From contig CAWGYV010000009.1 in NCBI GenBank assembly GCA_963826825.1, positions 151,036 through 215,035 on the forward strand: 64,000 nt of DNA, read 5' to 3'. The notes under the pieces are model-generated. The model was given only the letters and a program-made list of their open reading frames with translations, had not been told where the DNA came from and did no database searches. Every line of letters begins with the position of its first letter. Position 1 is the first letter of the stretch. A program made the position numbers and the translations under genes. Of the stretch, positions 3,277 through 19,895 are shown in pieces. Source of the DNA: an uncultured Acidimicrobiia bacterium (GTDB lineage: Bacteria; Actinomycetota; Acidimicrobiia; Spongiisociales; DATADW01).

Positions 3277-4744
3277 CTACCCCCCGGTTACCGGGGTGGT
3301 GCTGCGGGCGTAGGCGAGAACCGCAGCAGCGACGGCGTCGGAGTTGAGGTCGAGCACTTCGAGCGACACGTTGTCGAAGGTGTCGCATGCCTCGTGGTAG
3401 CAGGGGTCGTATTGCTCGCCGACCTGACCGCCGTAGACCGCCGCCTGCTCCGCCGTCTTGATCCCCTCGGCACCGGTGAACAGCCCACCAAAGGGGATTC
3501 CGGCATTGAAGAAGGCGGCGTAGTCGGAGCGGAAGCTGATCTCGGACGGTTCCGAGGCGAGCCCCCGATCGGCGTAGAAGTCCTCGAAGAAGGCCTCGAT
3601 GGCCTCCGACCCCGGGGGTCCGGCGAGCCCGAAGGCGGAGCCGTCGCCGTCGTAGATGAACCGGACGTAGTTGGGGGATCCGACCATGTCGAAGTTCAGG
3701 TAGAGGGCGATCCGATCGAGCTGGCCCGGAGCCAGGTTGGCGACGTAATAGTTCGACCCGATGAGGTTTGACTCCTCTGCGCTCCACCAGGCGAAGCGCA
3801 GCTTGTTTCGGGGGTTGATCCGGCGCATCTGCTCCGCCACCTCGAGCAGGGCGGCCGACCCGCTCCCGTTGTCGTTGATCCCGGGCCCGGCCGCAACCGA
3901 GTCGAGGTGCGCGCCCGCCATGACGACGTTCTCCGGATTGCCACCCCGCGACTCGGCGAAGACGTTCGATGTCGTCTCCGGGGCCCGGTACACGTCGGCG
4001 ACCATGTGCATCTCGAGCCCGGTGGTCTCTGACAACTCCACGCCCAATGCGTACGGGATGAGCATCACCGGGATCCCGCCGGAGTAGGCGTCGGTCAGGT
4101 TGCCGCCGAACAGACCGGTGCGGTCCTCGGTGTTGCCCTGGTTGAAGATGATCACACCGATCGCACCCGCTGCGGCGGCGTTCTCCGCCTTGAGCTGGAA
4201 GGTGCAGGTTCCTCGCTGGATGAGGGCGATGTTCCCGGCGGGGAAGTTGGCGAAGTCCTCGGTCTCGCAACCGCTCGTCGTCGTGTTCCCAAGCCCGAGT
4301 TGGAGGTCGACCGCAGTCACGGGTCCGGCCACGTCGCCCGGCTCGGTCTGTTGTGCCAGTTGGTAATCCACTCCCTCGACGTAAGTGACCTGCTCCGGCG
4401 ATGTCTGTTCGAGGGTGGAGGGGCCCAGCGGGTATGAAGGCGACGAACTCGAACTCCTGGATGGTGACCCGGTAGCCGGCGCGTCGCATACGGGTGGCGA
4501 CGTAGTCGGCCGACTCGTCGTAGCCGTCGAATCCGGCGACCCGGGTTCCGCCGTTGGCGTCTGCGATCTCCTGGAAGGCGGCCTGGTGCTCCCGCACTCC
4601 CTCGACCGTCACGCACTCGAGGAGCCTCTCTGTCGTGTTGTTCGGTCTGCGGTCGCACACCGCCGGTGTCACCTGCGCCGAGGCCGGAACCGCAGTCAAC
4701 AAGAAGAGGACCACGGTCAGAGCTGCAACGGCCTTGGATCGCAT
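3277..4744 (-). CDS. secreted M28-family aminopeptidase with a PA domain; +1 frameshift near 4429
   Basis: The signal peptide and N-terminus (MRSKAVAALTVVLFLLTAVPASAQ...AGYRVTIQEFEF) lie in the frame of ORF 2954..4744. The PA and M28 domains (GAHLDSVAAGPGINDNGSGSAALLE...WWSAEESNLIGS) lie in ORF 3277..4371. Confidence 0.85.
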
Positions 4745-4859
4745 GATGCCCCCTCAGGGTCGGGTCACGGGCTGTTGTCGATCCTACCGGACTGTCGCCG
4801 GCGCCCGCTGGGCGGGTACCACTCTCGAGCAGTGACCGGGGTTAGGATCGGTCACCGCC

Positions 4860-5684
4860 GTGCTCACCATCGCCCAGTTGTCCGACATCCACTGCGGCTC
4901 CCAGTATTTCGACCCCGACCTGCTCCGTCACGCCGTCGAGGAGATCCTCGCCCTCCAACCCGACATGGTCGTCGTCGCCGGCGACCTCACCCAGGAGGGC
5001 TACGCCAACGAGTTCCAGATGGCTCGTGACGCGCTGCGTCCCCTGGTCGACGAATTGCTCACCGTGGTCGTCCCCGGCAACCACGATGCCAAGAACGTCG
5101 GATATGTCCATTTCGAGGACCATTTCGGCAAGGGCGACGCCGGAAACGACGTGGTCGTTGACCTGGCCAGGGGTATCGAGCCGGAGCGGGTGACGCTGGT
5201 TGCCGTGGACAGCTCCAAGCCCGACCTCGCCGAGGGAGAGGTGGGGAGGGTCCGCTACCCCTGGATCCGCGAGCAGTTCACCACGCCTTCGGACCTGCGC
5301 ATATTCGCCCTCCATCACCACCTGGTGCCGGTCCCGGGGACGGGGCGGGAGCGCAACACCGTGTGGGATGCCGGCGATGTGCTGGCGGTGCTCGAGGAGA
5401 GCGAGGTCGATCTGGTCCTGTGTGGCCACAAGCACGTGCCCCACATCTGGGTGGTTGACGGGATCATGGTGGTCAACAGCGGGACGGTCTCGTCCTTCCG
5501 GCTCCGCGGTTACACCAGACCGTCGTACAACGTGGTCACCGTCGATTCCGAGGCCATCTCGGTGACGCTGATGTACCCGGGCAGCGGCGAGAAGCTGGCC
5601 GCCAGGTACGACCGAAACACACGGGTACTCGACCGCAATCCCGAGTTGGCAGGCATGTTCTCCAAGTCCAGTTGGGGCTGGTGA
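4860..5684 (+). CDS. metallophosphoesterase (calcineurin-like phosphoesterase)
   Basis: Intact ORF with the motifs LSDIHCG, AGDLTQEG, GNHD and GHKHVPH. Confidence 0.85.
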   Translation: MLTIAQLSDIHCGSQYFDPDLLRHAVEEILALQPDMVVVAGDLTQEGYANEFQMARDALRPLVDELLTVVVPGNHDAKNVGYVHFEDHFGKGDAGNDVVVDLARGIEPERVTLVAVDSSKPDLAEGEVGRVRYPWIREQFTTPSDLRIFALHHHLVPVPGTGRERNTVWDAGDVLAVLEESEVDLVLCGHKHVPHIWVVDGIMVVNSGTVSSFRLRGYTRPSYNVVTVDSEAISVTLMYPGSGEKLAARYDRNTRVLDRNPELAGMFSKSSWGW

Positions 5685-5986
5685 GCTACATCCGCTTCTT
5701 CCTCTCTGCGGTCTCCCCCGACGATGTCGAGGAGGTCGTCAGCCTCTTCGAGGCGGACGTCGTCCCCGCCTTCCGCGATCATCCCGACTGCCTCGGGATC
5801 GACCTGGTGATCGCAGAGGAGGCCGGGGTGAGCGGACTGGTCGAGGGTGGGGTGGTCACCCGCTGGACATCGGTGGAGGCCATGGAGGCCGCTCTCGACT
5901 CCCCGGCACTCGTCGGTAGCCAGGAACGCGTGCGGGGCATGCTCCGCCGCGAGCCGATCCGCAAGATCTACCGCGTGCTCGGCTGA
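5672..5986 (+). CDS. small ABM/Dabb-fold (antibiotic biosynthesis monooxygenase-like) protein
   Basis: 104-aa ORF with an ABM-like pattern (IRFFL..V.P..VEEV..LF...V.PAFRDHPDCLG..L......WTSVEAMEAAL). The start could be the GTG at 5681, overlapping the upstream stop. Confidence 0.5.
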   Translation: MGLVSYIRFFLSAVSPDDVEEVVSLFEADVVPAFRDHPDCLGIDLVIAEEAGVSGLVEGGVVTRWTSVEAMEAALDSPALVGSQERVRGMLRREPIRKIYRVLG

Positions 5987-7277
5987 GGCTCCCGGGGCGA
6001 GGCCAGCCGCTGCTTCCAATACGCCGGCCAGTGTCTCCATGCCGCCGTCGATCTCGACGACGTTGTGCAGCAGCCCGACCTCGATCCCGGCCGCGATCCG
6101 CCCAGGGGAGCACCACATCGGCTGCTGCGGCCTTCACCTCGGTGAGCACCAGATCGCACGGGGGAGTGGCTTCGAGGTCGGCAAGAAGGCGGTCGCGCCT
6201 CGAGAGGGTGTGGACCACGGAGACCGCCGCCGCACCGAGGCCGCGCAACTGGGCGGCCAACTCTTCGCCGGCGGTTTCTGGGGCGGTGGTGGCCACGATC
6301 AGCCGTCGGCCTTCCACCGGCACCGTCGGTTCGACCCGGTAGCGACCCTCGAAGATCGCCGCTCCCGGCGATACCCGGCGGACGGTCGCTGCGGCCGGGC
6401 CGCCGTCGTTCACCACGACGACGGCGTCGGCCAGCGCCAACCTGAAAGGGCCCAGGTAGCCGGTGATGTACTCGGGATCGAGCCGGGACCGCATCACCAG
6501 GACGCTCGCATCCGAGTGCGCCGGGGGGAGGGCGGTCCCGCTCCCCTCGAAGATGAGCAGCCCGGGGTCGAGGAGGTCCGCCGCGGCCACCCCTGCGGCG
6601 AACGTGTCGGCGACGGTGACCCCGGCAGGGCCGGCGCCGATACGCCTCGTCCCGACGGTGGGGACCCCGGCGAAAATGGCGTCCTCGACATAGTCAGAAG
6701 CGGCGTGGAGCCCGCGGCTCGCCAATGAGCGGAGCGCCTCGACGCCATCACCGAGATCTGTGGGGTCGAGGACTACGGGCGCCGCCGGTCCGCCGCGTCC
6801 CATCGTGACCACAACCGGATTTCTGCCCGTGCCCGACCAGTGGCGCGCCAGGGCGATCGACACCGCCGTCTTGCCCGTTCGCTTCCCAGTGCCCACCACC
6901 GCCACCGACGGTGTTGCCGTCAGCCGGGGCATGGGGGGAGGGTCGAACCGGAAGCCCCCACCGGCGTAGGCGACACCGGCGGCGAGAGCCACCCCGAGCA
7001 GGGCGAAGCGGGCCCGGTGATCGAGCACCGGTTCGTCGCTCATGTCGAAGACGATCTCGGGTCGGTAGTGCGCGATCAGGTCATCGAGGGTCTGCATCGG
7101 GTCGCCGGTGTGGACCGGGATCACAAGGTCGGGGGGGCCCGCCGTCTTCTCAGATCCACCCAGGAACAACGCGGCCACCGGCACCATGCCTCGTCGCTCC
7201 AACTCGGCCAGGCCGTCGAGCACCACAGATGGATGGTGCTCTCCGTCGATGAGGATCAGGGCCCGGGCGGGCGTCAC
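5968..7277 (-). CDS. cyclic 2,3-diphosphoglycerate synthetase-like protein; +1 frameshift near 6110 and probably another near 6000
   Basis: A GTG start overlaps the upstream stop (GTGA). The sequence has MTPARALILIDGEHHPSVV, the P-loop VVGTGKRTGKTAVS and TEVKAAA. The C-terminus continues in the frame of ORF 5510..6118 (GRIAAGIEVGLLHNVVEIDGG) and probably then in the frame of ORF 5968..6159. The exact 3' end is uncertain. Confidence 0.7.
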
Positions 7278-11051: not shown

Positions 11052-12233
11052 CTAAAGGACGTCGGTGGGTCGCGGCACGAAGTCCCGGTCGAGCCGGAAA
11101 GGGTTGTCATCGATCCGGCCGGTGATGAGGTCGACCAGGTGACGGCTCCCCGCCGGACCCCCCATGATTCCATGACCGCTGTAACCGCAATTCGTCCACA
11201 GCCCGGGCACAGCGGTTTCGCCAAGGAGGGGTCGGTGGTCGGGTGTCATGTCGTACTGCCCGGACTGGACCATCCATGACACCGAGCCATCCCGCCAGGC
11301 ATCTGCCCAGAATGGAGCAACCTTGGCCAGGGACACCGGGCTCGACGGGTCGAGCAGCCGGAAGGCGAAGGCGGCGTCAGGTGGCACGTCTTCCAGCGGC
11401 GGTCCGGGTGGGGTGGATGGGTCGGTGTGGAGCAGGTAGGCGCCCGCCAGGGCAGGGCGCCAATGGGCACCGGTGTCGTCGTCGATCGTCATCGGCGCCC
11501 ACTGCGGGACTGCCGGTAGATCGGGGACGACGACCTTGTGCCTGATCACCGCCTCGAGCGGCAGGTCGACGCCGGCCATCGCTGCCACCACACCGGAGAA
11601 CGGCCCGGCGGCGATCACAACGGTCTTCGCCGACAAGGTGCCCATCGACGTCTCAACAGCGGTGATCCCTTCGCCGGTCACACCGAATCCGGTCACCTCG
11701 CACGAGACCACCACATCGGCGCCGGATCCCTCGATGAGCCCGAGCGCCAACTGTCTCGGGTCGAGGAAGCCGTCACCGCCTCGGAAACGTGCCTGGAGGA
11801 CATCTGAGCCGACGAAAGGGAAGCGGGAACGGACCTCGTCGCCCCCGAGCAACTCGATGTCCGTCTGCCCCCAGCTGTGCTGTAGCTCGACCAGCCGGCG
11901 TTGCTCCTCCATCCGCTCCGGCGACGTCGTTGCCCACAGATAGCCCTGGCGGCGAACCATCGGGTCGTAGCGGCGCTGGCCGGTCACCTCGGCGAAGTCA
12001 TCGAGCAAGGCCACCGTCTCGCGGACCAGATCCATCTCCTCTCGGTTGTCGAACTGGAGACGGAAGGCTCCGGTGCTGGCCGCGGTGGTGTGGGTCACGG
12101 GTGCCGGGCGGCGCTCGAGGATCACGGGGTGGATGCCTGCACCTGCAGCGTGGAAGGCGGTGGACGCACCGGCGATGCCCCCGCCGACGATGACTATCTC
12201 GGCGGTACGGGGGAGAGCAGCTGTGATCTGCAC
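11052..12233 (-). CDS. FAD-dependent oxidoreductase (DAO family, sarcosine/glycine-oxidase-like)
   Basis: Intact 393-aa ORF with the dinucleotide fold IVIVGGGIAGASTAFHAA and a C-terminal GYSGHGIMGGP. Confidence 0.8.
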   Translation of the reverse strand: MQITAALPRTAEIVIVGGGIAGASTAFHAAGAGIHPVILERRPAPVTHTTAASTGAFRLQFDNREEMDLVRETVALLDDFAEVTGQRRYDPMVRRQGYLWATTSPERMEEQRRLVELQHSWGQTDIELLGGDEVRSRFPFVGSDVLQARFRGGDGFLDPRQLALGLIEGSGADVVVSCEVTGFGVTGEGITAVETSMGTLSAKTVVIAAGPFSGVVAAMAGVDLPLEAVIRHKVVVPDLPAVPQWAPMTIDDDTGAHWRPALAGAYLLHTDPSTPPGPPLEDVPPDAAFAFRLLDPSSPVSLAKVAPFWADAWRDGSVSWMVQSGQYDMTPDHRPLLGETAVPGLWTNCGYSGHGIMGGPAGSRHLVDLITGRIDDNPFRLDRDFVPRPTDVL

Positions 12234-12243
12234 GGACGGCCTT

Positions 12244-13215
12244 TCAGCTCCAGTCGAGCATGGAACGCGCCGCCCAATAGATCTCGGGGCTCATTGCCAG
12301 CGGTTGCAACGATTCGACCTCGCCCGGCGAGAGGCGCACGCCGACCGCCTCGAGGTTGGAACGGAGTTGGCCGGGGGTCACCGCACCGGATAGCACCATG
12401 TCCACCCACGGTTGGATCAAGATGGCGGCGATAGCGACAGCGTCCGCTCCCACTCCGTGATTCCGGGCCACCTCGGCGATCTCGGGCGGCGCCGTCTCGC
12501 CGACCAGCCTGCCGTTGGCGAGTGCTTCCTTGACCATCACCCCCCAGCCTGCCTGGTGCGCCGCTTCGAGGGCGGACCCCGCCGAGGTCTCGAGGACGTT
12601 CCACGTCGCCTGAACCTGCTGAAACGGGTTGACCCCATCCACCTCGGCCGCCAACGCCCGCTCCACCGCCTCCGCCTGTCTGGGCCCGCTGGTGGTGAGC
12701 CCAATCACCACACCCTCTTCCTCGTTGATCCGGACGAGTTCGGCGAGAACAGCCTGATCCTCGAGCACGCCGGTGTCGAGCGTGGCCGAGTGGATCTGGT
12801 ATAGGCGGAGGCTGCCCCCCAGCAGTCGCCGGCTCTCCGCCCATTGCTCCTGCAGGGCGGTCAGCGAATGGTCCTTCACCTCGTGGACGGGGGCGTCCAT
12901 CTGCCAATCACCGACGTAGCGGTAACCCCACTTGGAGCCGATGGTGAGGTCGCTGGACCGATGGTCCTCGAGCCATCCCGCCAGGAACTGCTCGGCCAGC
13001 CCATAGGAGCGGGCCACGTCGACGTACCCCAGTCCGAGCGCCGCGGCGAGGTCGAGCATCCGGTTGGTCTGCTCGCTCATGGCGTCCTCGGTGCGATGCG
13101 TCCCCAGGTCGCCAGAGCGGTGGGGTGTTATGTATGCGGGCCGGCCCAGCGCAGCCAGCCCAAGCCCGATTGGCGTGACCGAGAGCCCAGTGGATCCCAG
13201 GGGTCGTCGTTCCAC
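12244..13215 (-). CDS. aldo/keto reductase
   Basis: Intact 323-aa ORF containing MERRPLGSTGLSVTPIGLG, DVARSYG and LYQIHS. Confidence 0.85.
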   Translation of the reverse strand: MERRPLGSTGLSVTPIGLGLAALGRPAYITPHRSGDLGTHRTEDAMSEQTNRMLDLAAALGLGYVDVARSYGLAEQFLAGWLEDHRSSDLTIGSKWGYRYVGDWQMDAPVHEVKDHSLTALQEQWAESRRLLGGSLRLYQIHSATLDTGVLEDQAVLAELVRINEEEGVVIGLTTSGPRQAEAVERALAAEVDGVNPFQQVQATWNVLETSAGSALEAAHQAGWGVMVKEALANGRLVGETAPPEIAEVARNHGVGADAVAIAAILIQPWVDMVLSGAVTPGQLRSNLEAVGVRLSPGEVESLQPLAMSPEIYWAARSMLDWS

Positions 13216-13244: not shown

Positions 13245-14090
13245 TCACCGGTCGGCCGGAGACCTGGCTCGCGAACGCGCCAACAGCTCTGGTGGGATGC
13301 GAGGTTTGTCCTTCGGCGTGTCGGTTGGCGACGCCGGCTCATTGGCGGCCCGGGCGCGGGACCGTTCGAGCAGTTCTGGCGGTATGCGCGGTTTGGCGGG
13401 CGACTCGCCGGCATCGGTGGCCTCTTCCGGCCCGGCGGGCGCCGTGGAGGGTCTGGCGCGGGTTCGCTCGAGCAGCTCGGGTGGGATGCGGTTCTTGGCC
13501 GGGGCCTGGGGCGTCTCGGCGACCTCTGCACCGGTTGGCGAGTCGACCGGCACCACCCGGCGCGACGTCGGCCCCCCGGCCTTGATCACTCTGAGCACGA
13601 TCAGGCCGATCACCGCGGTCAACGTCGTGGCGTACATGACCACCATCACGGGGTGCCCCGTATCGGTGCCGGCGGTGATCCCATGGAGCGCGGCCGCCAG
13701 GAAGCAGCCAAAGGTGGCGAAGTGGAGGGTGCGCCAGGCGCGCTGGCCGATCCGATGGCGCAGGTAGAACGATGGTGTGATCACCGCCAGTGCCCAGAAC
13801 GCCACGACGCCCAGGGCGACGGGAACCGGTCGGAAGGTCGAGGCGCCCGGGATCAACAGGTGGCGCAGGTCGAAATCGATGAACTCCTCCAGCCAGAGAC
13901 TCACCATGTGGACGAGAGTCGCTGCCACGGCTGCCAGCGACAACGACTCGTGTACCCAGGTGAGATCGCGGGCCGACGCCGAGCGGTCGAGCACCTTGCT
14001 GGCGAGCAGCAGCCCCCAGATGGTCGCAGCCGAGAGCAACAAGTAGGCGGCGACCCCCGAGCCGCGCGCCAGCATCCAGATCGGGTTCAT
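13245..14090 (-). CDS. ferric-reductase-like transmembrane domain protein (MsrQ/FRD-type) with a repeat-bearing C-terminal tail
   Basis: I prefer the ATG at 14090 (MNPIWMLARGSGVAAYLLL...) because it overlaps the ApbE stop as ATGA. It has multi-TM segments with conserved His (WVHESLS, TLHF, ALHGI). The tail carries three K(P/N)RIPPELLER(S/T)RAR repeats. Confidence 0.75.
   Translation of the reverse strand: MNPIWMLARGSGVAAYLLLSAATIWGLLLASKVLDRSASARDLTWVHESLSLAAVAATLVHMVSLWLEEFIDFDLRHLLIPGASTFRPVPVALGVVAFWALAVITPSFYLRHRIGQRAWRTLHFATFGCFLAAALHGITAGTDTGHPVMVVMYATTLTAVIGLIVLRVIKAGGPTSRRVVPVDSPTGAEVAETPQAPAKNRIPPELLERTRARPSTAPAGPEEATDAGESPAKPRIPPELLERSRARAANEPASPTDTPKDKPRIPPELLARSRARSPADR
13263..13496 (-). 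repeat. three in-frame copies of a 15-aa motif (KPRIPPELLERSRAR) at about 93-nt spacing in the FRD-protein tail
   Basis: Copies lie at 13263-13307, 13350-13394 and 13452-13496, separated by Pro/Ala/Ser-rich linkers. Confidence 0.8.
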
Positions 14091-14917
14091 GCCGCCACCT
14101 CCAACCCCGAGGTGGCGAAAACCGATCCGTCCCACCAAACAACCAGACCGGCACGCACCCAGCTCTGCTCCTCAGCCCACTCCAGCGAGTCGACACCGGA
14201 GAGGAGCATGGCCTTGGCGGCCGCCTCCGCCTCGACCGCGGTGGCGGCGATCGCAGTGGCCGACTGGACGGGCGACTCGACCGGCTCGCCGGTTCTCGGG
14301 TCGACCAGATGGCTCGCCGTGCGGTCCCCTGCCCGCCACCGGCGCCGGGTGGTCGAGCTGGTGGCCAGGGCCCCTCGCCCAACCCTCACCATGGCAGCGG
14401 CCGATCCGTCTGGGTGGAGGACCTCTACCCGCAGGTCGGGATGATCGGAGCGGAGGTCGCCACCGGCGTTGACCACGGTCGCCAGGCCTGCCTCCACGGC
14501 ACGGTCACAGGTCCATCCTTTGGCCACCCCGCCGAGATCCAGCCGCGTCCCCTCGCTTCTCCATACAGCTCCTGCACCCAGAGTCCAAGAGCCGGCCGGC
14601 ACCGGTCCGGGGTTCGCCTCGGTGTCGGTGACCAGCTCGAAGCTGCGGTCGTACCCCCAGGCTTCGACTGCGGCGCCGATGGACGGGTCGACGAGCCCAT
14701 TGGTCCTGATGCGGGCTTCATCAGCCGCGGTGAGGACGGTGTGGAGGAGTGGTGAGACAGCCGTCCACCCTGAGTGGCTGCGGTTGAGGCGCGACAGCTC
14801 GCTGTCTTGGCGGAACCGGCTGCACACATCCTCCACCTGCTCGAACCAGACAGCGACCTGGTCGGCGCTGCCGCCGTGAACCCATACGTTGGTGCCCATG
14901 GCCCGAAACGAGGTCAT
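14087..14917 (-). CDS. apbE: FAD:protein FMN transferase (ApbE family), with no signal peptide or lipobox
   Basis: Intact 276-aa ORF that starts directly at the conserved MTSFRAMGT segment. It also has DLGGVAKGW and SHLVDPRTGEP. Confidence 0.8.
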   Translation of the reverse strand: MTSFRAMGTNVWVHGGSADQVAVWFEQVEDVCSRFRQDSELSRLNRSHSGWTAVSPLLHTVLTAADEARIRTNGLVDPSIGAAVEAWGYDRSFELVTDTEANPGPVPAGSWTLGAGAVWRSEGTRLDLGGVAKGWTCDRAVEAGLATVVNAGGDLRSDHPDLRVEVLHPDGSAAAMVRVGRGALATSSTTRRRWRAGDRTASHLVDPRTGEPVESPVQSATAIAATAVEAEAAAKAMLLSGVDSLEWAEEQSWVRAGLVVWWDGSVFATSGLEVAA

Positions 14918-15297
14918 GAGCCCGAGCTCTGGGTGCTTGGCGCCGGTGCCGGGGCGGGTGCGGGAACGGGCGTCGGGGCCGGCGCCGGTGCCGGCGCTGG
15001 GGTGATCGATTCCTCGCTGTCCGCTCGTTCTGAGGTCGGTGCCTTCGGCTCCTCGTGGCGGATGACGACCAGCCCCTTCGCCGGTGCCTTGGGGAGGGGC
15101 GCCGCCCGTACGAGGGAGGTCGTGACCGTTGTGACGACCGGCTCGGGCTTGGGTGCTGGCTCGTCGGCCGAGGCGAGACGCGCCATCCCGGCGGCTGTGG
15201 CGGCGACGGCAGCAGCAGCCCAGGCAATGATCCGGGTGACCCTGCCCGGGTGGAGCCGGGTGGCCGCGGCTGATCGACTCCTTGGTCTGTCGGTCAT
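14914..15297 (-). CDS. single-pass membrane protein with a Pro-Ala repeat tail
   Basis: 127-aa ORF with a TM segment (IIAWAAAAVAATAAGMA) and the tail PAPAPAPAPTPVPAPAPAPAP. Its start and stop overlap the neighbouring genes by 4 nt. Confidence 0.55.
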   Translation of the reverse strand: MTDRPRSRSAAATRLHPGRVTRIIAWAAAAVAATAAGMARLASADEPAPKPEPVVTTVTTSLVRAAPLPKAPAKGLVVIRHEEPKAPTSERADSEESITPAPAPAPAPTPVPAPAPAPAPSTQSSGS

Positions 15298-15644
15298 TTG
15301 CCCACCGTCAGTGCGGTCTGTTCGGCTCGGAGCACCGCAACTACGGAGTCGGGGATGCGCCGTAGCTGAGCCGGTGCGACGACACGGCTCGCCCCGCTCT
15401 CGGCGAGCACCCGCTGCACGGCGGCGTCCAGCCCGGAGACGCGTGGCTGGCCGGCCGCTGACGGCTGGGCCACGGTCGTTTGAGGTGCGGAGCCCGCCGT
15501 CGAAGGAGGGGTGGACGTGGCGGGCTTTACCGCACCTCCCACGGTGAACAGCAGCACCGCGAGCGAAGCCGCAGTCACCATGAAGGGGACGACCAGTCGC
15601 CTCAACAAGCCGTGGCCCGACTTGGCCGAATCAGTCATCGTCAT
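15294..15644 (-). CDS. small single-pass membrane protein carrying an SGAS motif (candidate flavinylation site)
   Basis: The ATG at 15644 or 15638 gives MTMTDSAKSGHGLLRRLVVPFMVTAASLAVLLFTVGG...VLAESGASRVV. The upstream part of track ORF 15294..15971 is Arg-rich and looks non-coding. Confidence 0.55.
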   Translation of the reverse strand: MTMTDSAKSGHGLLRRLVVPFMVTAASLAVLLFTVGGAVKPATSTPPSTAGSAPQTTVAQPSAAGQPRVSGLDAAVQRVLAESGASRVVAPAQLRRIPDSVVAVLRAEQTALTVGK

Positions 15645-16194
15645 CGTCCCAGTCGTCATCGTCCCAGTCGTCGTCATCGCTGTCGTCATCGCTGTCGTCA
15701 AGGTCGCTGTCGTCCCATTCGTCGTCGGAGTCATCATCCGAGTCGACCACCGGGGCCGCAGGCGCCTGAGACACAGCCGGCGCTGCTGCCACAACGGGCG
15801 CCGCCACCGTCTCGATGACGACCTCGGGTATGGGCTTGCTCGAACCGGGGAGCGGTTTCCCCCGCGCCTCGCAGATCGGGCGCAGAGCGGCGAGAGCCGC
15901 CTCTTCGATCTCGCTGGCCTTGCCGGCCCTGGCACGCTTGACCAGGGCCCTTCCATCCGCACCGCAGGCAAGCCGGTAGTCGCGGCCGCTGGCTGCTGCG
16001 GCGACGGTCTGTGGCGCCGCCGCCGTCTTCACCCCGGCGGGGGCTGCAACGGCCACCGGTTCCTGGTTCGCCGCGGCAGGTGCCGGGTCGTCTGGCGGTG
16101 CCGACAGCGCCACTGCCACCAGGGCGATGGCGGGCACCGTCACGGCCCCGATGATGAGCGAACGGGTCAATGCGCGTCGTGGTTTGGCTTCCAT
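15631..16194 (-). CDS. single-pass membrane protein with an extreme Asp/Trp-rich C-terminal tail
   Basis: I prefer the start MEAKPRRALTRSLIIGAVTVPAIALVAVAL. The protein ends in DSDDDSDDEWDDSDLDDSDDDSDDDDWDDDDWDDDDD. An alternative start lies at 16239. Confidence 0.6.
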   Translation of the reverse strand: MEAKPRRALTRSLIIGAVTVPAIALVAVALSAPPDDPAPAAANQEPVAVAAPAGVKTAAAPQTVAAAASGRDYRLACGADGRALVKRARAGKASEIEEAALAALRPICEARGKPLPGSSKPIPEVVIETVAAPVVAAAPAVSQAPAAPVVDSDDDSDDEWDDSDLDDSDDDSDDDDWDDDDWDDDDD

Positions 16195-16332
16195 GTTTCC
16201 CCTCGTCGACAGGCGCCATCGTCGGGGTCGCGAGGTCAAGACCTCATCAACGAGCGGTCAACGGAGTCAACAATCCCCCCGCTCCCCGAACCGATCGGAA
16301 GTACCGTCTTCGGGCTCCCCACGAGGATTCCG

Positions 16333-18087
16333 ATGATCCCGGTTCGCCGCTACTGGAAGCTGCTACGCGACTATCTCCGCCCACACCGGGCCGGGGTCGT
16401 CGTCCTTGCCTTCCTGGTCGCCGGCGGGATAGCCCTGCAGTTGGTCAACCCGCAGTTGATGGCGCAGATCATCGATGGTGCGGTTGCAGGTGATGATGCC
16501 TCCAGGCTGGTTGGTCTCGCCGTGCTCTTCATGGTCTTGGCGATGGCTCAACAGGGGCTCGGTTTGGCCGCCACCTGGGTCGGGCAGCGGATCGGGTGGG
16601 CGGCGACGAACGAGTTGCGCGCCGACCTGGCCGACCATTGCGTCAGGCTCGACCTCGCATTCCACAAGCAGCGAACTCCGGGCGAGCTGATCGAGAGGAT
16701 CGACGGGGACGTGACCGCCCTGTCGAACTTCTTCTCGCAATTCGCCGTCCATGTCGTCGGCAACATCGTCCTTCTGGTCGGGATCCTGGTGCTGCTCATG
16801 ATCGAGAGCCTGTGGATCGGTCTGGTGATGGTCGTTTTCGCCGCCGTCTCGATGTTCGCCACGCTCCGGGTCCACCATCTCGCCGTTCCGTGGTGGACCG
16901 GGTTCCGTGTCCGCAGCGCCGAGTTCTTCGGATTCGTCGGAGAGATCCTCGGTGGCACCGAGGAGGTGCGGGCCAACGGGGCCGCATCCTTCTTCATGGG
17001 CCGGCTCATCCGGATCCTCCGCTCCTGGCTCCCCGATCAGCTGCGCGCCGGGGCCGGGTGGTCGGCCCTTTGGTCGGCCAACGTATTCATCTTCGCCTTC
17101 AGCACCGCTCTCATCTACTGGATGGGGGAGCGCTTGTTCGGTGCGGGTGATCTCACCATCGGATCGGTCTATCTCGTCTTCACCTACGTGGAGTTGTTGC
17201 GGATGCCGATGGAGCGGATTCGGGACCAGATGGAGGACCTGCAGAAGGCAGGTGCCGGTATCAACAGGGTGGAAGATTTGTTCTCGGTGTCGACCAAGGT
17301 CGAGGATCTGGGAACTCACCACCTTCCCGCCGGCCCTCTATCGGTCAGGTTCGACCACGTCACCTTTGGCTACGACGACGAGGATGCCGGTGGAGGACCG
17401 GTGCTCGACGACGTCTCCTTCGAGGTCGGGAAGCAGGTCGTCCTCGGCGTGCTGGGACGAACCGGTAGCGGGAAAACCACGGTCGCCCGGTTGATCACAC
17501 GGTTGTACGACCCCGATCAAGGCTCCGTGGCGGTGGGTGGCGTGGCTCTGCCCGATGTCGAGGCGACTGATCTCCGGCGGCGGGTGAGGATGGTCAGCCA
17601 GGACGTACAGCTCTTCCACGCGACGCTGCGCGACAACCTCACGCTCTTCGCCCAATCGGTCGACGACGACCGGCTGCTCGGTGTCCTCTCCCAACTCGGC
17701 CTCGGCGACTGGACCATGGCCCTTCCGTCGGGTCTCGACACGGTCTTGCCACCTGGCGGGGGAGGATTGTCAGCGGGCGAGGGCCAGCTGCTCGCATTCG
17801 CCCGCGCCTTCCTCGCCGATCCCGGTTTGGTTGTGCTCGACGAAGCGTCATCGCGGCTCGACCCGGCAACCGAGCGGCTGATCGAACGCGCCGTCGACCA
17901 ACTACTCGATGGCCGCACCGGGATCATCATCGCCCACCGGCTCGCCACATTGGAGCGGGCCGACGAGATCATGATCGTCGATCGCGGCCGGGTTGTTGAG
18001 CACGGTCCGCGTGGCGAGCTCGCCGCCGATCCATCGAGCCGGTTCGCCCACTACCTCCGGGTCGGGCTGGAAGAGGTGCTGGCGTGA
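16333..18087 (+). CDS. ABC exporter, fused permease/ATPase subunit 1
   Basis: The ATG at 16333 ([21 protein letters not shown]) fits type-I exporter N-termini. It has Walker [10 protein letters not shown], signature LSAGEGQ and Walker B LVVLDEA. The upstream 270 aa of the track ORF is a GC-frame artefact. Confidence 0.85.
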
Positions 18088-19895
18088 CCGGCCGTCCGAT
18101 CCCGGCGGCAAGGGTCATGGCCCGGCTGATGCGGACCGAGCCGTGGCGCTATGCGGCCAACGTCACCCTCTGGGTGATCATCTACCTGGCGCCGATCGTG
18201 CCCGGGTTGCTCACCAAGTGGTTCTTCGACAACTTGACCGGGGATGCACCGGCTGGGCTCGACGTGCCCACGCTCATCGCACTGCTCCTCGGGTACGCGG
18301 TCTTCCGGGTGGTGAACATCTTTGTCGCCATATGGAACGACGTGAACTTCCGCTTCCGCATGGCATCACGGCTCCGGATCAACATGATGAGCCGGATCCT
18401 CGAGCTGCCCGGTGCCACGGCGGTCCCCGGGTCGACCGGCGATGCCATCACCCGTTTCAGGGAGGACGTGGAGCAGATCGAGGAGACGGTGAGCTGGACG
18501 GTGGATGTCATCGGCTCGATCCTCTTCTCCACGGTCTCCTTGTGGGTGCTCGCCACGATCGATGCCCAGCTCACGCTTGTCGTGTTCGCCCCGCTCATCG
18601 TTGTCGTCGTCCTGGCGGAGCGGGCCGGCTCGATGGTGGAGCGAGCCCGCCGCCAGGCGCGTGACGCCACCGGCGAAGTCACCGGTGCCATCGGCGAGAT
18701 CTTCGGGGGAGTACAGGCGGTGAAGCTGGCGGGGGCCGAGGATCGTGTGGTCGGCCATCTCCGCCGGTTGAACCAGGGGCGTCTCAAGTTCATGGTGCGC
18801 GATCGGGTCCTCGAGGAGGGACTGGAAGCTCTCTTCTGGAACACGGTCAACCTCGGCACCGGCCTCGTGCTGTTGCTTTCGGCAGACAAGATCGGACAGC
18901 CCGGAGGGTTGACCGTGGGTGATTTCGCCCTGTTTGTCTACTTCATGGGTTTCATCACCGACAACGTCCATGTCCTCGGGTTGTTCATCGCCCGGTTCCG
19001 ACAGGCCCGGGTAGCAACCGACCTCATGACCGGATTGTTGGGTGGGGCCGCCCCCCAGCGGTTAGCGGAACCGGTAGACCTGCACCTCGACGACACCGAT
19101 CCGGTGATCACATCATCGCCTGCGGGTCCGCACGAGCGACTCACCCTTCTCGAGACGAGAGGCATCACCTATCGCCACCCCGACACCGGGCGTGGCATCA
19201 GTGAGGTGGACCTGACCATCCCGGCCGGGACCTTCACCGTGGTCGCAGGCAGGATCGGGTCTGGCAAGACGACCCTCCTCAGAGCGGTGCTGGGCCTCGT
19301 CGTGGCCGATGCGGGAGAAGTCCAGTGGAATGGGGCGCGAGTCATCGACCCCGGCGCGTTCATGGTTCCCCCTAGGGCCGCCTACACGCCCCAAGTGCCG
19401 CGCCTCTTCTCCATGACCCTCCGCGACAACCTGGATCTCGGGCTGGAACACGACGACACGCAGATCGCTGCCGCTCTGCGCACCGCGGTACTCGACGATG
19501 ACGTCGCCGACATGCCCGACGGCCTCGACACCAAGGTAGGCCCGCTCGGTGTCCGCCTCTCCGGGGGCCAAGTCCAGCGCGCCGCCACGGCCCGCGCCCT
19601 GCTGCGCCGCGCCGACCTGCTCGTGTTCGATGATCTCTCGTCTGCGCTCGACGTCGAGACCGAGCGGACCCTTTGGGCCCGGCTCTTCGCCGATCAAGAC
19701 GATGTCACCTGCCTAGTCGTGTCGCACCGCCGAGCGGCCCTGCGCCGTGCCGACCAAATAGTGCTCCTCGAGGAGGGAAGAGTGGCGGCGGTGGGCTCGC
19801 TCGACCACCTCCTGGCGACCAGCGATGTGATGCGCGCCATCTGGTCCGCCGATCAATCGAGCAGGGATACCGTGGAACTGGCGCCCGTCGCATAG
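18084..19895 (+). CDS. ABC exporter, fused permease/ATPase subunit 2
   Basis: The GTG start overlaps the upstream stop. It has Walker [10 protein letters not shown], signature LSGGQVQ and Walker B LLVFDD. Confidence 0.85.

Follow-up and report, generated by a model that had tools for sequence, protein, structure and literature searches.

Many extracytosolic redox systems rest on flavinylation by ApbE, a family of transferases that move flavin mononucleotide (FMN) from flavin adenine dinucleotide (FAD) to protein. The described systems closest to the one considered here are the MsrQ-like clusters of Actinobacteria, which typically combine apbE with a gene for an FMN_bind protein, and in the survey that defined them only signal-peptide-bearing components were analysed (Meheust et al. 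2021, PMC8238504). The same survey found about 4% of ApbE-bearing genomes to be orphans, with no known acceptor, which implies that there are substrates still to be identified. We describe an operon from an uncultured bacterium of the class Acidimicrobiia that joins these two themes. It lies in a stretch of 64,000 nucleotides (the window) of contig CAWGYV010000009.1 (assembly GCA_963826825.1, positions 151,036 to 215,035), with a GC content of about 68%, from a metagenome-assembled genome (MAG) of 3.16 Mb that is 78% complete (the own genome, G000). Five minus-strand open reading frames (ORFs), read directly from the sequence, follow each other in the order g1-g2-g3-ApbE-FRD and are chained through overlapping stop and start codons; they encode three single-pass membrane proteins, an ApbE protein that has neither signal peptide nor lipobox, and a di-haem membrane protein of the ferric-reductase-domain (FRD) type. 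The operon is a variant of the MsrQ-like flavinylation-associated systems and, from the domain searches described below, belongs among the orphan-ApbE genomes. The presence of a haem-type FRD protein makes a flavinylation-linked electron-transfer module its natural reading, and in the form that we favour, ApbE would flavinylate the C-terminal tail of g3 and the haems of the FRD protein would feed the FMN tethered there, a proposal whose chances we judge to be evenly balanced.

A conserved operon with a leaderless ApbE

The five genes are g1 (15631..16194, 187 aa), g2 (15294..15644, 116 aa), g3 (14914..15297, 127 aa), apbE (14087..14917, 276 aa) and the FRD gene (13245..14090, 281 aa), all on the minus strand. 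An ATGA tetranucleotide forms the junction between g2 and g3 (15297-15294), between g3 and apbE (14917-14914, the stop codon of g3 overlapping the ATG of apbE), and between apbE and the FRD gene (14090-14087). At the remaining junction the stop codon of g1 (15633-15631) lies inside g2, and the overlap is 14 nt if g2 starts at the ATG at 15644, or 8 nt if it starts at the ATG at 15638. The start of g1 is more likely the ATG at 16194 (MEAKPRRALTRS) than the TTG at 16239, judging from relatives that begin with MEA(N/K)PRR, and given this start the upper boundary of 16239 in a first-pass annotation of the window lies about 45 nt too far upstream. The five genes and overlapping junctions described there were otherwise borne out by reading the sequence, and its view of the operon as a single translationally coupled unit holds up, both in the overlaps and in the recurrence of the gene order in relatives.

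That recurrence emerged from the search of related genomes for which the annotation had called. The order g1-g2-g3-ApbE-FRD was found in all five same-genus genomes and also in other families of the same order and class, so the arrangement is not a product of chance. It extends to Acidimicrobiia loci in which ApbE shares 48–94% identity with that of the window. In a sample of 150 high-quality Acidimicrobiia genomes, 90 carry an ApbE of this type and together span 65 of 94 genera, and the 4-nt coupling of apbE to both g3 and the FRD gene is kept across the class. Beyond the class, in other Actinomycetota, Chloroflexota and Bacillota (Neobacillus, Ectobacillus), the operon is represented by a core of three genes, for an anchored tail protein, a leaderless ApbE and an FRD protein; cultured carriers of this core also include Herpetosiphon, and in the other phyla it lacks g2.

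The ApbE protein of the window matches PF02424 with 156.7 bits (cut-off 25.6, E 1.1e-45) over profile positions 1-258 of 266. Its Vibrio cholerae counterpart has His257, Ser241 and Asp285 as catalytic residues (PMC12052999), and alignment to the V. cholerae structure (6nxi) places H203, S187 and E231, respectively, at these positions. Across ten sequences of the clade (alignment A2), S187 and E231 do not vary, and the conservation of H203 is at least 90%. The N-terminus lies just three residues ahead of the F-x-A-M-G-T core. From its upstream frame and its homologues, we conclude that the protein is truly leaderless: the in-frame stretch back to the stop codon at 15308-15310 is Arg/Gly/Pro-rich and offers no ATG, GTG or TTG and no hydrophobic segment, and close homologues, in more than 100 database clusters, are 270–283 aa long, a leader being missing in all relatives examined. 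Two longer database homologues have miscalled starts. A hidden signal peptide or a wrongly placed start of ApbE was thereby ruled out, in agreement with the description of this protein in the first-pass annotation as starting directly at its conserved core.

Domain searches for the known acceptors of ApbE covered the own genome and five relatives (G001, G004, G007, G031 and G038). No FMN_bind domain (PF04205) was found in the own genome, 78% complete as it is, or in the five relatives, four of which are 92–100% complete, so the lack of a canonical FMN-binding-domain substrate, which had been remarked upon for the neighbourhood of the operon, holds genome-wide. DUF2271 (PF10029) was likewise found neither in the own genome nor in the relatives searched, the completeness of which reaches 100%. 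DUF3570 (PF12094) gave no match in the genomes searched, but the control for this search gave no signal either. Nowhere in the cluster is there a conserved canonical flavinylation motif. The substrate of ApbE could instead be a cytoplasmic protein, so far unrecognised, from another part of the genome, with the operon neighbours of ApbE merely co-regulated, and there is precedent for cytoplasmic ApbEs with cytoplasmic targets, for example the soluble fumarate reductase of Klebsiella pneumoniae (PMC12052999). The missing FMN_bind domain in the own genome and in near-complete relatives is against this, as is the class-wide 4-nt coupling to g3 and the FRD gene. The own genome does hold seven full matches to D-x-x-[ST]GA[ST], but these lie in a phosphoglycerate-kinase-like motif, in ABC-transporter motifs and in other unrelated contexts (identities assigned by eye). 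We consider a target elsewhere in the genome improbable.

The C-terminal tail of g3 as candidate flavin acceptor

The protein encoded by g3 has an Arg-rich N-terminus, a transmembrane (TM) anchor at about aa 22-41 and a strand motif, P-x-x-P-x-x-G-L-x-x-x-R, at aa 69-80, followed by a Pro/Ala-rich linker of variable length that runs out into an S-x-G-S end. In an alignment of 14 sequences (A1), R19, P69, P72, G75, L76 and R80 are invariant, and so are S124, G126 and S127 at the very end, in a tail that is otherwise low in complexity, divergent and unalignable. The tetrapeptide concerned, SSGS-COOH in the window (14917..14928, minus strand, aa 124-127), is a candidate non-canonical acceptor site for ApbE. 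All Acidimicrobiia loci but one end g3 with S-x-G-S-COOH. Of 73 non-redundant loci, 55 have an exact [ST]xG[ST] end, and in others TGGS or TGSS lies one to three residues short of the C-terminus. A further 13 homologues from metagenomes all end in SSGS or SGGS; in the own genome, 2 of 2568 ORFs have an [ST]xG[ST] end. Tails outside Acidimicrobiia (other Actinomycetota, Chloroflexota and Bacillota) end in TGG[ST]-COOH, which differs from [ST]GA[ST] only in the replacement of Ala by Gly, and the tail from a paralogous cluster in genome G007 (see later) ends in SNGSR. Among about 150 loci sampled, no canonical [ST]GA[ST] tail was found beside a leaderless ApbE, only TGG[ST] and S-x-G-S. The g3 tail therefore does not belong to the canonical D-x-x-[ST]-G-A-[ST] class: S-x-G-S, like the TGG[ST] of other phyla, resembles it without being a member.

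The codons used for the tail point to selection at the level of the protein rather than the RNA, since the Ser at position -4 switches between codon families (AGC, AGT, TCG or TCT) and the Gly is specified by all four of its codons. The motif is also kept where the junction with apbE is not ATGA, including a 55-nt gap in Neobacillus. The possibility that the motif is a by-product of the overlapping start codon or of a ribosome-binding site is excluded by the switch of Ser codon families and by these non-overlapping junctions. A fusion of g3 to ApbE by frameshifting at the ATGA overlap was also considered and rejected: the Gly codon varies (GGC, GGA, GGG, GGT) and leaves no conserved slippery site, no fused homologue was seen among the 120 best matches, and the motif persists where the two genes do not overlap.

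Short terminal acceptors have precedents. Flavin tags of seven residues work best when placed at an end of the protein and hardly need the Asp of the motif (PMC12052999), and ApbE-associated FMN_red proteins bear flavinylation motifs in a C-terminal extension that is unstructured (Huang et al. 2024, bioRxiv 10.1101/2024.03.13.584918). Because of these terminal-tag and C-terminal-extension precedents, together with the conservation of its tail, g3 appears to be the most plausible flavin acceptor of the operon.

The first-pass annotation had placed the acceptor in g2, the neighbouring small membrane protein, where ApbE would flavinylate Ser86 in a loop reading LAESGASR and make g2 the flavin carrier of the module. 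This protein has a TM helix (aa 12-36), a disordered linker and a small helical C-terminal domain (aa 74-107), and the SGAS motif (15387..15398, minus strand, aa 83-86) is found where the first helix of that domain ends. Its AlphaFold2 (AF2) model, with a mean predicted local distance difference test score (pLDDT) of 70, shows the TM helix, the disordered linker and three short helices, and a Foldseek search of the PDB returned no match with E below 5. In the model this motif would be exposed, at a helix end or in a loop, and [ST]GA[ST] is kept in all six same-genus loci (WIN, L017-L020 and L028) as ESGAS, DSGAS or ETGAS. Homologues of g2 occur in 58 related loci, and outside the genus of the window the site reads STGNT, GNGYA, AHGSA, ENGFT, DSRHV and so on, with only G84 near-constant, so that the motif is missing from every other lineage even though g2, ApbE and the FRD protein are conserved there. 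In an alignment of 35 sequences (A3), L80, L105 and L112 are invariant and G84 nearly so, and the position of the motif Asp is occupied by the invariant L80. At the frequency of [ST]GA[ST] in the own genome (0.14 per 1000 aa, from a rough ORF set), chance alone would give about 0.14 copies in the five operon proteins, and the three-gene core of other phyla lacks g2 altogether. The SGAS of g2 is best read as a chance motif, or at most as a genus-specific extra, and its role as acceptor is highly improbable. Thus, of the non-canonical flavinylation-linked transmembrane module that had been proposed for this locus, the leaderless ApbE, the lack of an FMN_bind protein and the FRD partner all stand, as does the gene order, while the motif chosen as target is not conserved and g2 as the flavin carrier is not supported.

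Several observations weigh against g3 as well. S-x-G-S does not fit the proven [ST]-G-A-[ST], the Gly being shifted and the Ala absent, and g3 lacks any fold able to shelter a flavin. The loci compared are related, hence the motif counts given above are not independent events. A subgroup of Chloroflexota (L083, L086, L090, L091, L101, L109 and L115) has tails that end in (T)RSSR instead of [ST]xG[ST], which may represent a different tag or a different function. There is also a conflict of topology. In all three small membrane proteins the N-terminal flank tends to be net positive and the stretch that follows the TM helix net negative (14 of 14 sequences for g3, 31 of 35 for g2 and 37 of 37 for g1; in g3, net +3.3 and -1.7, respectively), and therefore, by the positive-inside rule, their C-terminal parts are predicted to lie outside the cell. 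With the tail of g3 outside in all 14 cases and an ApbE devoid of export signal, enzyme and target are predicted to be on opposite sides of the membrane. Export of ApbE by hitch-hiking on g3 through the twin-arginine translocation (Tat) route was considered and rejected, as the twin Arg is not conserved in alignment A1.

The conflict disappears if ApbE has no acceptor in the operon at all, and instead remains in the cytoplasm with FAD bound, where it would serve the FRD protein directly at the inner face of the membrane as a docked flavoprotein, by flavin delivery or as a partner with FAD-pyrophosphatase activity. The model for such an arrangement is the service of E. coli MsrQ by Fre. The tail motif of g3 would then have another role, e.g., in docking, processing or contact with the cell wall. 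The absence of a leader from ApbE throughout fits this explanation, as does the lack of a conserved canonical motif, and so do changes at the Mg-ligand positions of ApbE in the main clade, where the Asp (D285) is replaced by E231 and a Thr by Lys. However, the transferase His, Ser and acidic residue are all retained, and the explanation leaves unaccounted for a pairing, spanning phyla, of ApbE with Ser/Thr-Gly tails that resemble the ApbE site. We regard it as rather unlikely.

Proposed electron path, accessory proteins and genomic surroundings

The FRD protein scores 21.8 bits against PF01794, under the cut-off of 28 bits, and the Ectobacillus homologue from the same type of cluster scores 36.7 bits. 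Four candidate haem ligands form two pairs, H47/H61 (x13) and H123/H136 (x12), and in a set of 64 non-redundant homologues each of these His is retained by at least 98%. Such spacing, on two helices, is the di-haem signature of NOX/FRE proteins (the NOX2 spacing), and the four haem His support the earlier assignment of a haem-type FRD domain despite the low profile score. The distribution of charges suggests five TM helices that start from an external N-terminus, and a cytoplasmic C-terminal tail. This predicted inner tail carries three KPRIPPELLxRSRAR repeats (window 13263-13496, minus strand). A comparable motif was found in 1 of 44 homologue tails scanned (L030), in a scan that missed the window's own protein, and on this count the repeat was rejected as a core docking motif. 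In three loci a gene for a 91-aa ferredoxin (CxxGxxxC ... CP(A/G)EC) lies directly upstream of g1 (L021:3625-3900, L027:3452-3727 and L029:3527-3802), and its product is a candidate for the cytoplasmic electron donor of the FRD cytochrome.

If g3 is the acceptor, the module could work as follows. ApbE would move FMN from FAD to a Ser of the C-terminal tag of g3, making of it a natural 'flavin tag', and the haems of the FRD protein would pass electrons over the membrane to this FMN, held outside the cell on its Pro-rich leash. The tethered flavin would in turn reduce an external acceptor, most likely Fe(III), and g1 and g2 would be lineage-specific accessory subunits at the outer face. Since ApbE apparently stays in the cytoplasm, FMN would have to be attached to the tag there, ahead of translocation of the short tail, unless ApbE gets outside by some unrecognised route. 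A more specific version, in which the cytoplasmic ApbE draws on the FAD pool of the cell and attaches FMN to the last Ser, after which the flavinylated tail is threaded out to act as a leash-held shuttle reducing external iron, is possible but tentative. If it is true, the system can do without both an FMN-binding fold and a flavin exporter, and its range takes in at least three phyla.

The suggestion that the module reduces external Fe(III) draws on three lines. An FTR1-family iron permease gene (PF03239, E 1.6e-33, with REGLE motifs) directly follows the Ectobacillus core (L106:5620-6324). MsrQ-like clusters have been associated with iron reduction (PMC8238504). The third is the tail of g1, which is acidic and sometimes rich in His.

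In the g1 protein a TM helix (aa 9-30) is joined by a linker to a small domain of three helices that contains two Cys (15865..15987, minus strand, aa 70-110), and a poly-acidic tail rich in Asp, Trp and Ser (15634..15744, minus strand, aa 151-187) follows. In an alignment of 37 sequences (A4), P21, C77, A100, L101, L104, R105 and C108 are invariant. The AF2 model reproduces the TM helix at 9-30 and places helices at 70-110 with pLDDT above 90, and Foldseek found nothing in the PDB with E below 5. With C77 and C108 inside it, the modelled three-helix domain is probably disulfide-bonded and extracytoplasmic. The last 40 residues contain at least 40% Asp and Glu in 41 of 48 non-redundant homologues, often accompanied by His, Trp or Tyr, and this tail may bind cations. 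Searches of Pfam and NCBIfam returned nothing above noise for g1, g2 or g3.

Downstream of the operon, an aldo/keto reductase gene (window 12244-13215, minus strand) begins 29 nt past the FRD stop codon and is followed by a gene for a DAO-type FAD oxidoreductase (11052-12233, minus strand). This neighbourhood is kept only within the genus, and therefore the two genes are probably not members of the module. On the other side, and divergent from the operon, are two genes for fused permease/ATPase ABC exporters that are MsbA/CydDC-like (window 16336-19895, plus strand); both fall below every NCBIfam cut-off. Homologues of the exporters adjoin the operon in same-genus loci and also in two loci from other lineages (L023 and L031), and a functional tie, such as the export of haem, thiol or flavin, is possible.

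A histidine kinase and an OmpR-type response regulator flank the ApbE-FRD cluster in L023, L025, L026, L034, L035 and L036, except that L026 has only the response regulator and L034 only the kinase; neither was seen in the genus of the window. Their position suggests signal-dependent control of the module. Genome G007 carries, besides the five-gene operon, a second, paralogous cluster (L035, G007:C12:193500-204500, at about 4090-6490), in which an anchored, beta-rich protein that has an acidic tail and a g3-like protein whose C-terminus reads RVVVVRSNGSR accompany a leaderless ApbE and an FRD protein, and it adjoins the two-component system and a gene resembling those for pyridoxal-phosphate (PLP)-dependent Met-gamma-lyases. 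In some related MAG loci, tblastn matches are split over frames by breaks inside genes, namely in L017 (g3), L028/L062 (g2, ApbE) and L033 (g1-g3). The breaks probably stem from assembly or indel errors in long-read MAGs and not from real pseudogenes.

Comparison with described flavinylation systems

A search of the literature found nothing on this gene arrangement beyond the papers of the Light laboratory and the review of ApbE. The operon type occurs widely among soil Acidimicrobiia. Should the tail of g3 prove to be the acceptor, the motif recognised by ApbE would be widened, a flavoprotein could consist solely of anchor, leash and tag, the question would arise of where flavinylation takes place relative to export, and a likely ferric-reductase system would be named for a poorly cultured class. 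Should it not, a conserved leaderless ApbE beside a di-haem cytochrome still calls for an explanation.

With the MsrQ-like clusters (PMC8238504) the operon shares the placement of apbE beside a PF01794-type haem membrane protein (of the six-helix class in those clusters, which are common in Actinobacteria), the proposed transfer of electrons across the membrane to a flavinylated partner, and the link to iron reduction. In those clusters, however, the acceptor is an FMN_bind protein and the MsrQ-like protein usually bears an NAD-binding domain, and the operon described here has neither, nor does it have DUF2271; it offers instead a leaderless ApbE, a bare FRD core of five predicted helices and three unnamed single-pass proteins. 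The operational definition used by Meheust et al. called for a PF01794 gene clustered with a signal-peptide-bearing ApbE or an FMN_bind gene, and the present operon falls outside it. Lacking both a signal peptide on ApbE and an FMN_bind gene, it would be filtered out of that analysis.

The engineered Flavin-tag (Tong et al. 2021, reviewed in PMC12052999) and the FMN_red extensions (bioRxiv 10.1101/2024.03.13.584918) have in common with the g3 tail a short terminal peptide as (candidate) acceptor, with no surrounding FMN-binding fold. Their motifs are of the canonical D-x-x-[ST]-G-A-[ST] form, whereas g3, anchored in the membrane and low in complexity, offers S-x-G-S-COOH as the candidate. The cytoplasmic ApbE of Klebsiella pneumoniae (PMC12052999) likewise lacks a signal peptide and acts inside the cell, but its target is a soluble, cytoplasmic FMN_bind enzyme, and here the partners are all membrane proteins for which external domains are predicted. 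Finally, the FRD protein resembles the NOX/FRE cytochromes and the Fre-MsrQ pair of E. coli in its two His pairs (x13 and x12), predicted to hold two stacked b haems on two helices, and departs from them in having neither a fused FAD/NADPH dehydrogenase domain nor an MsrP-type partner.

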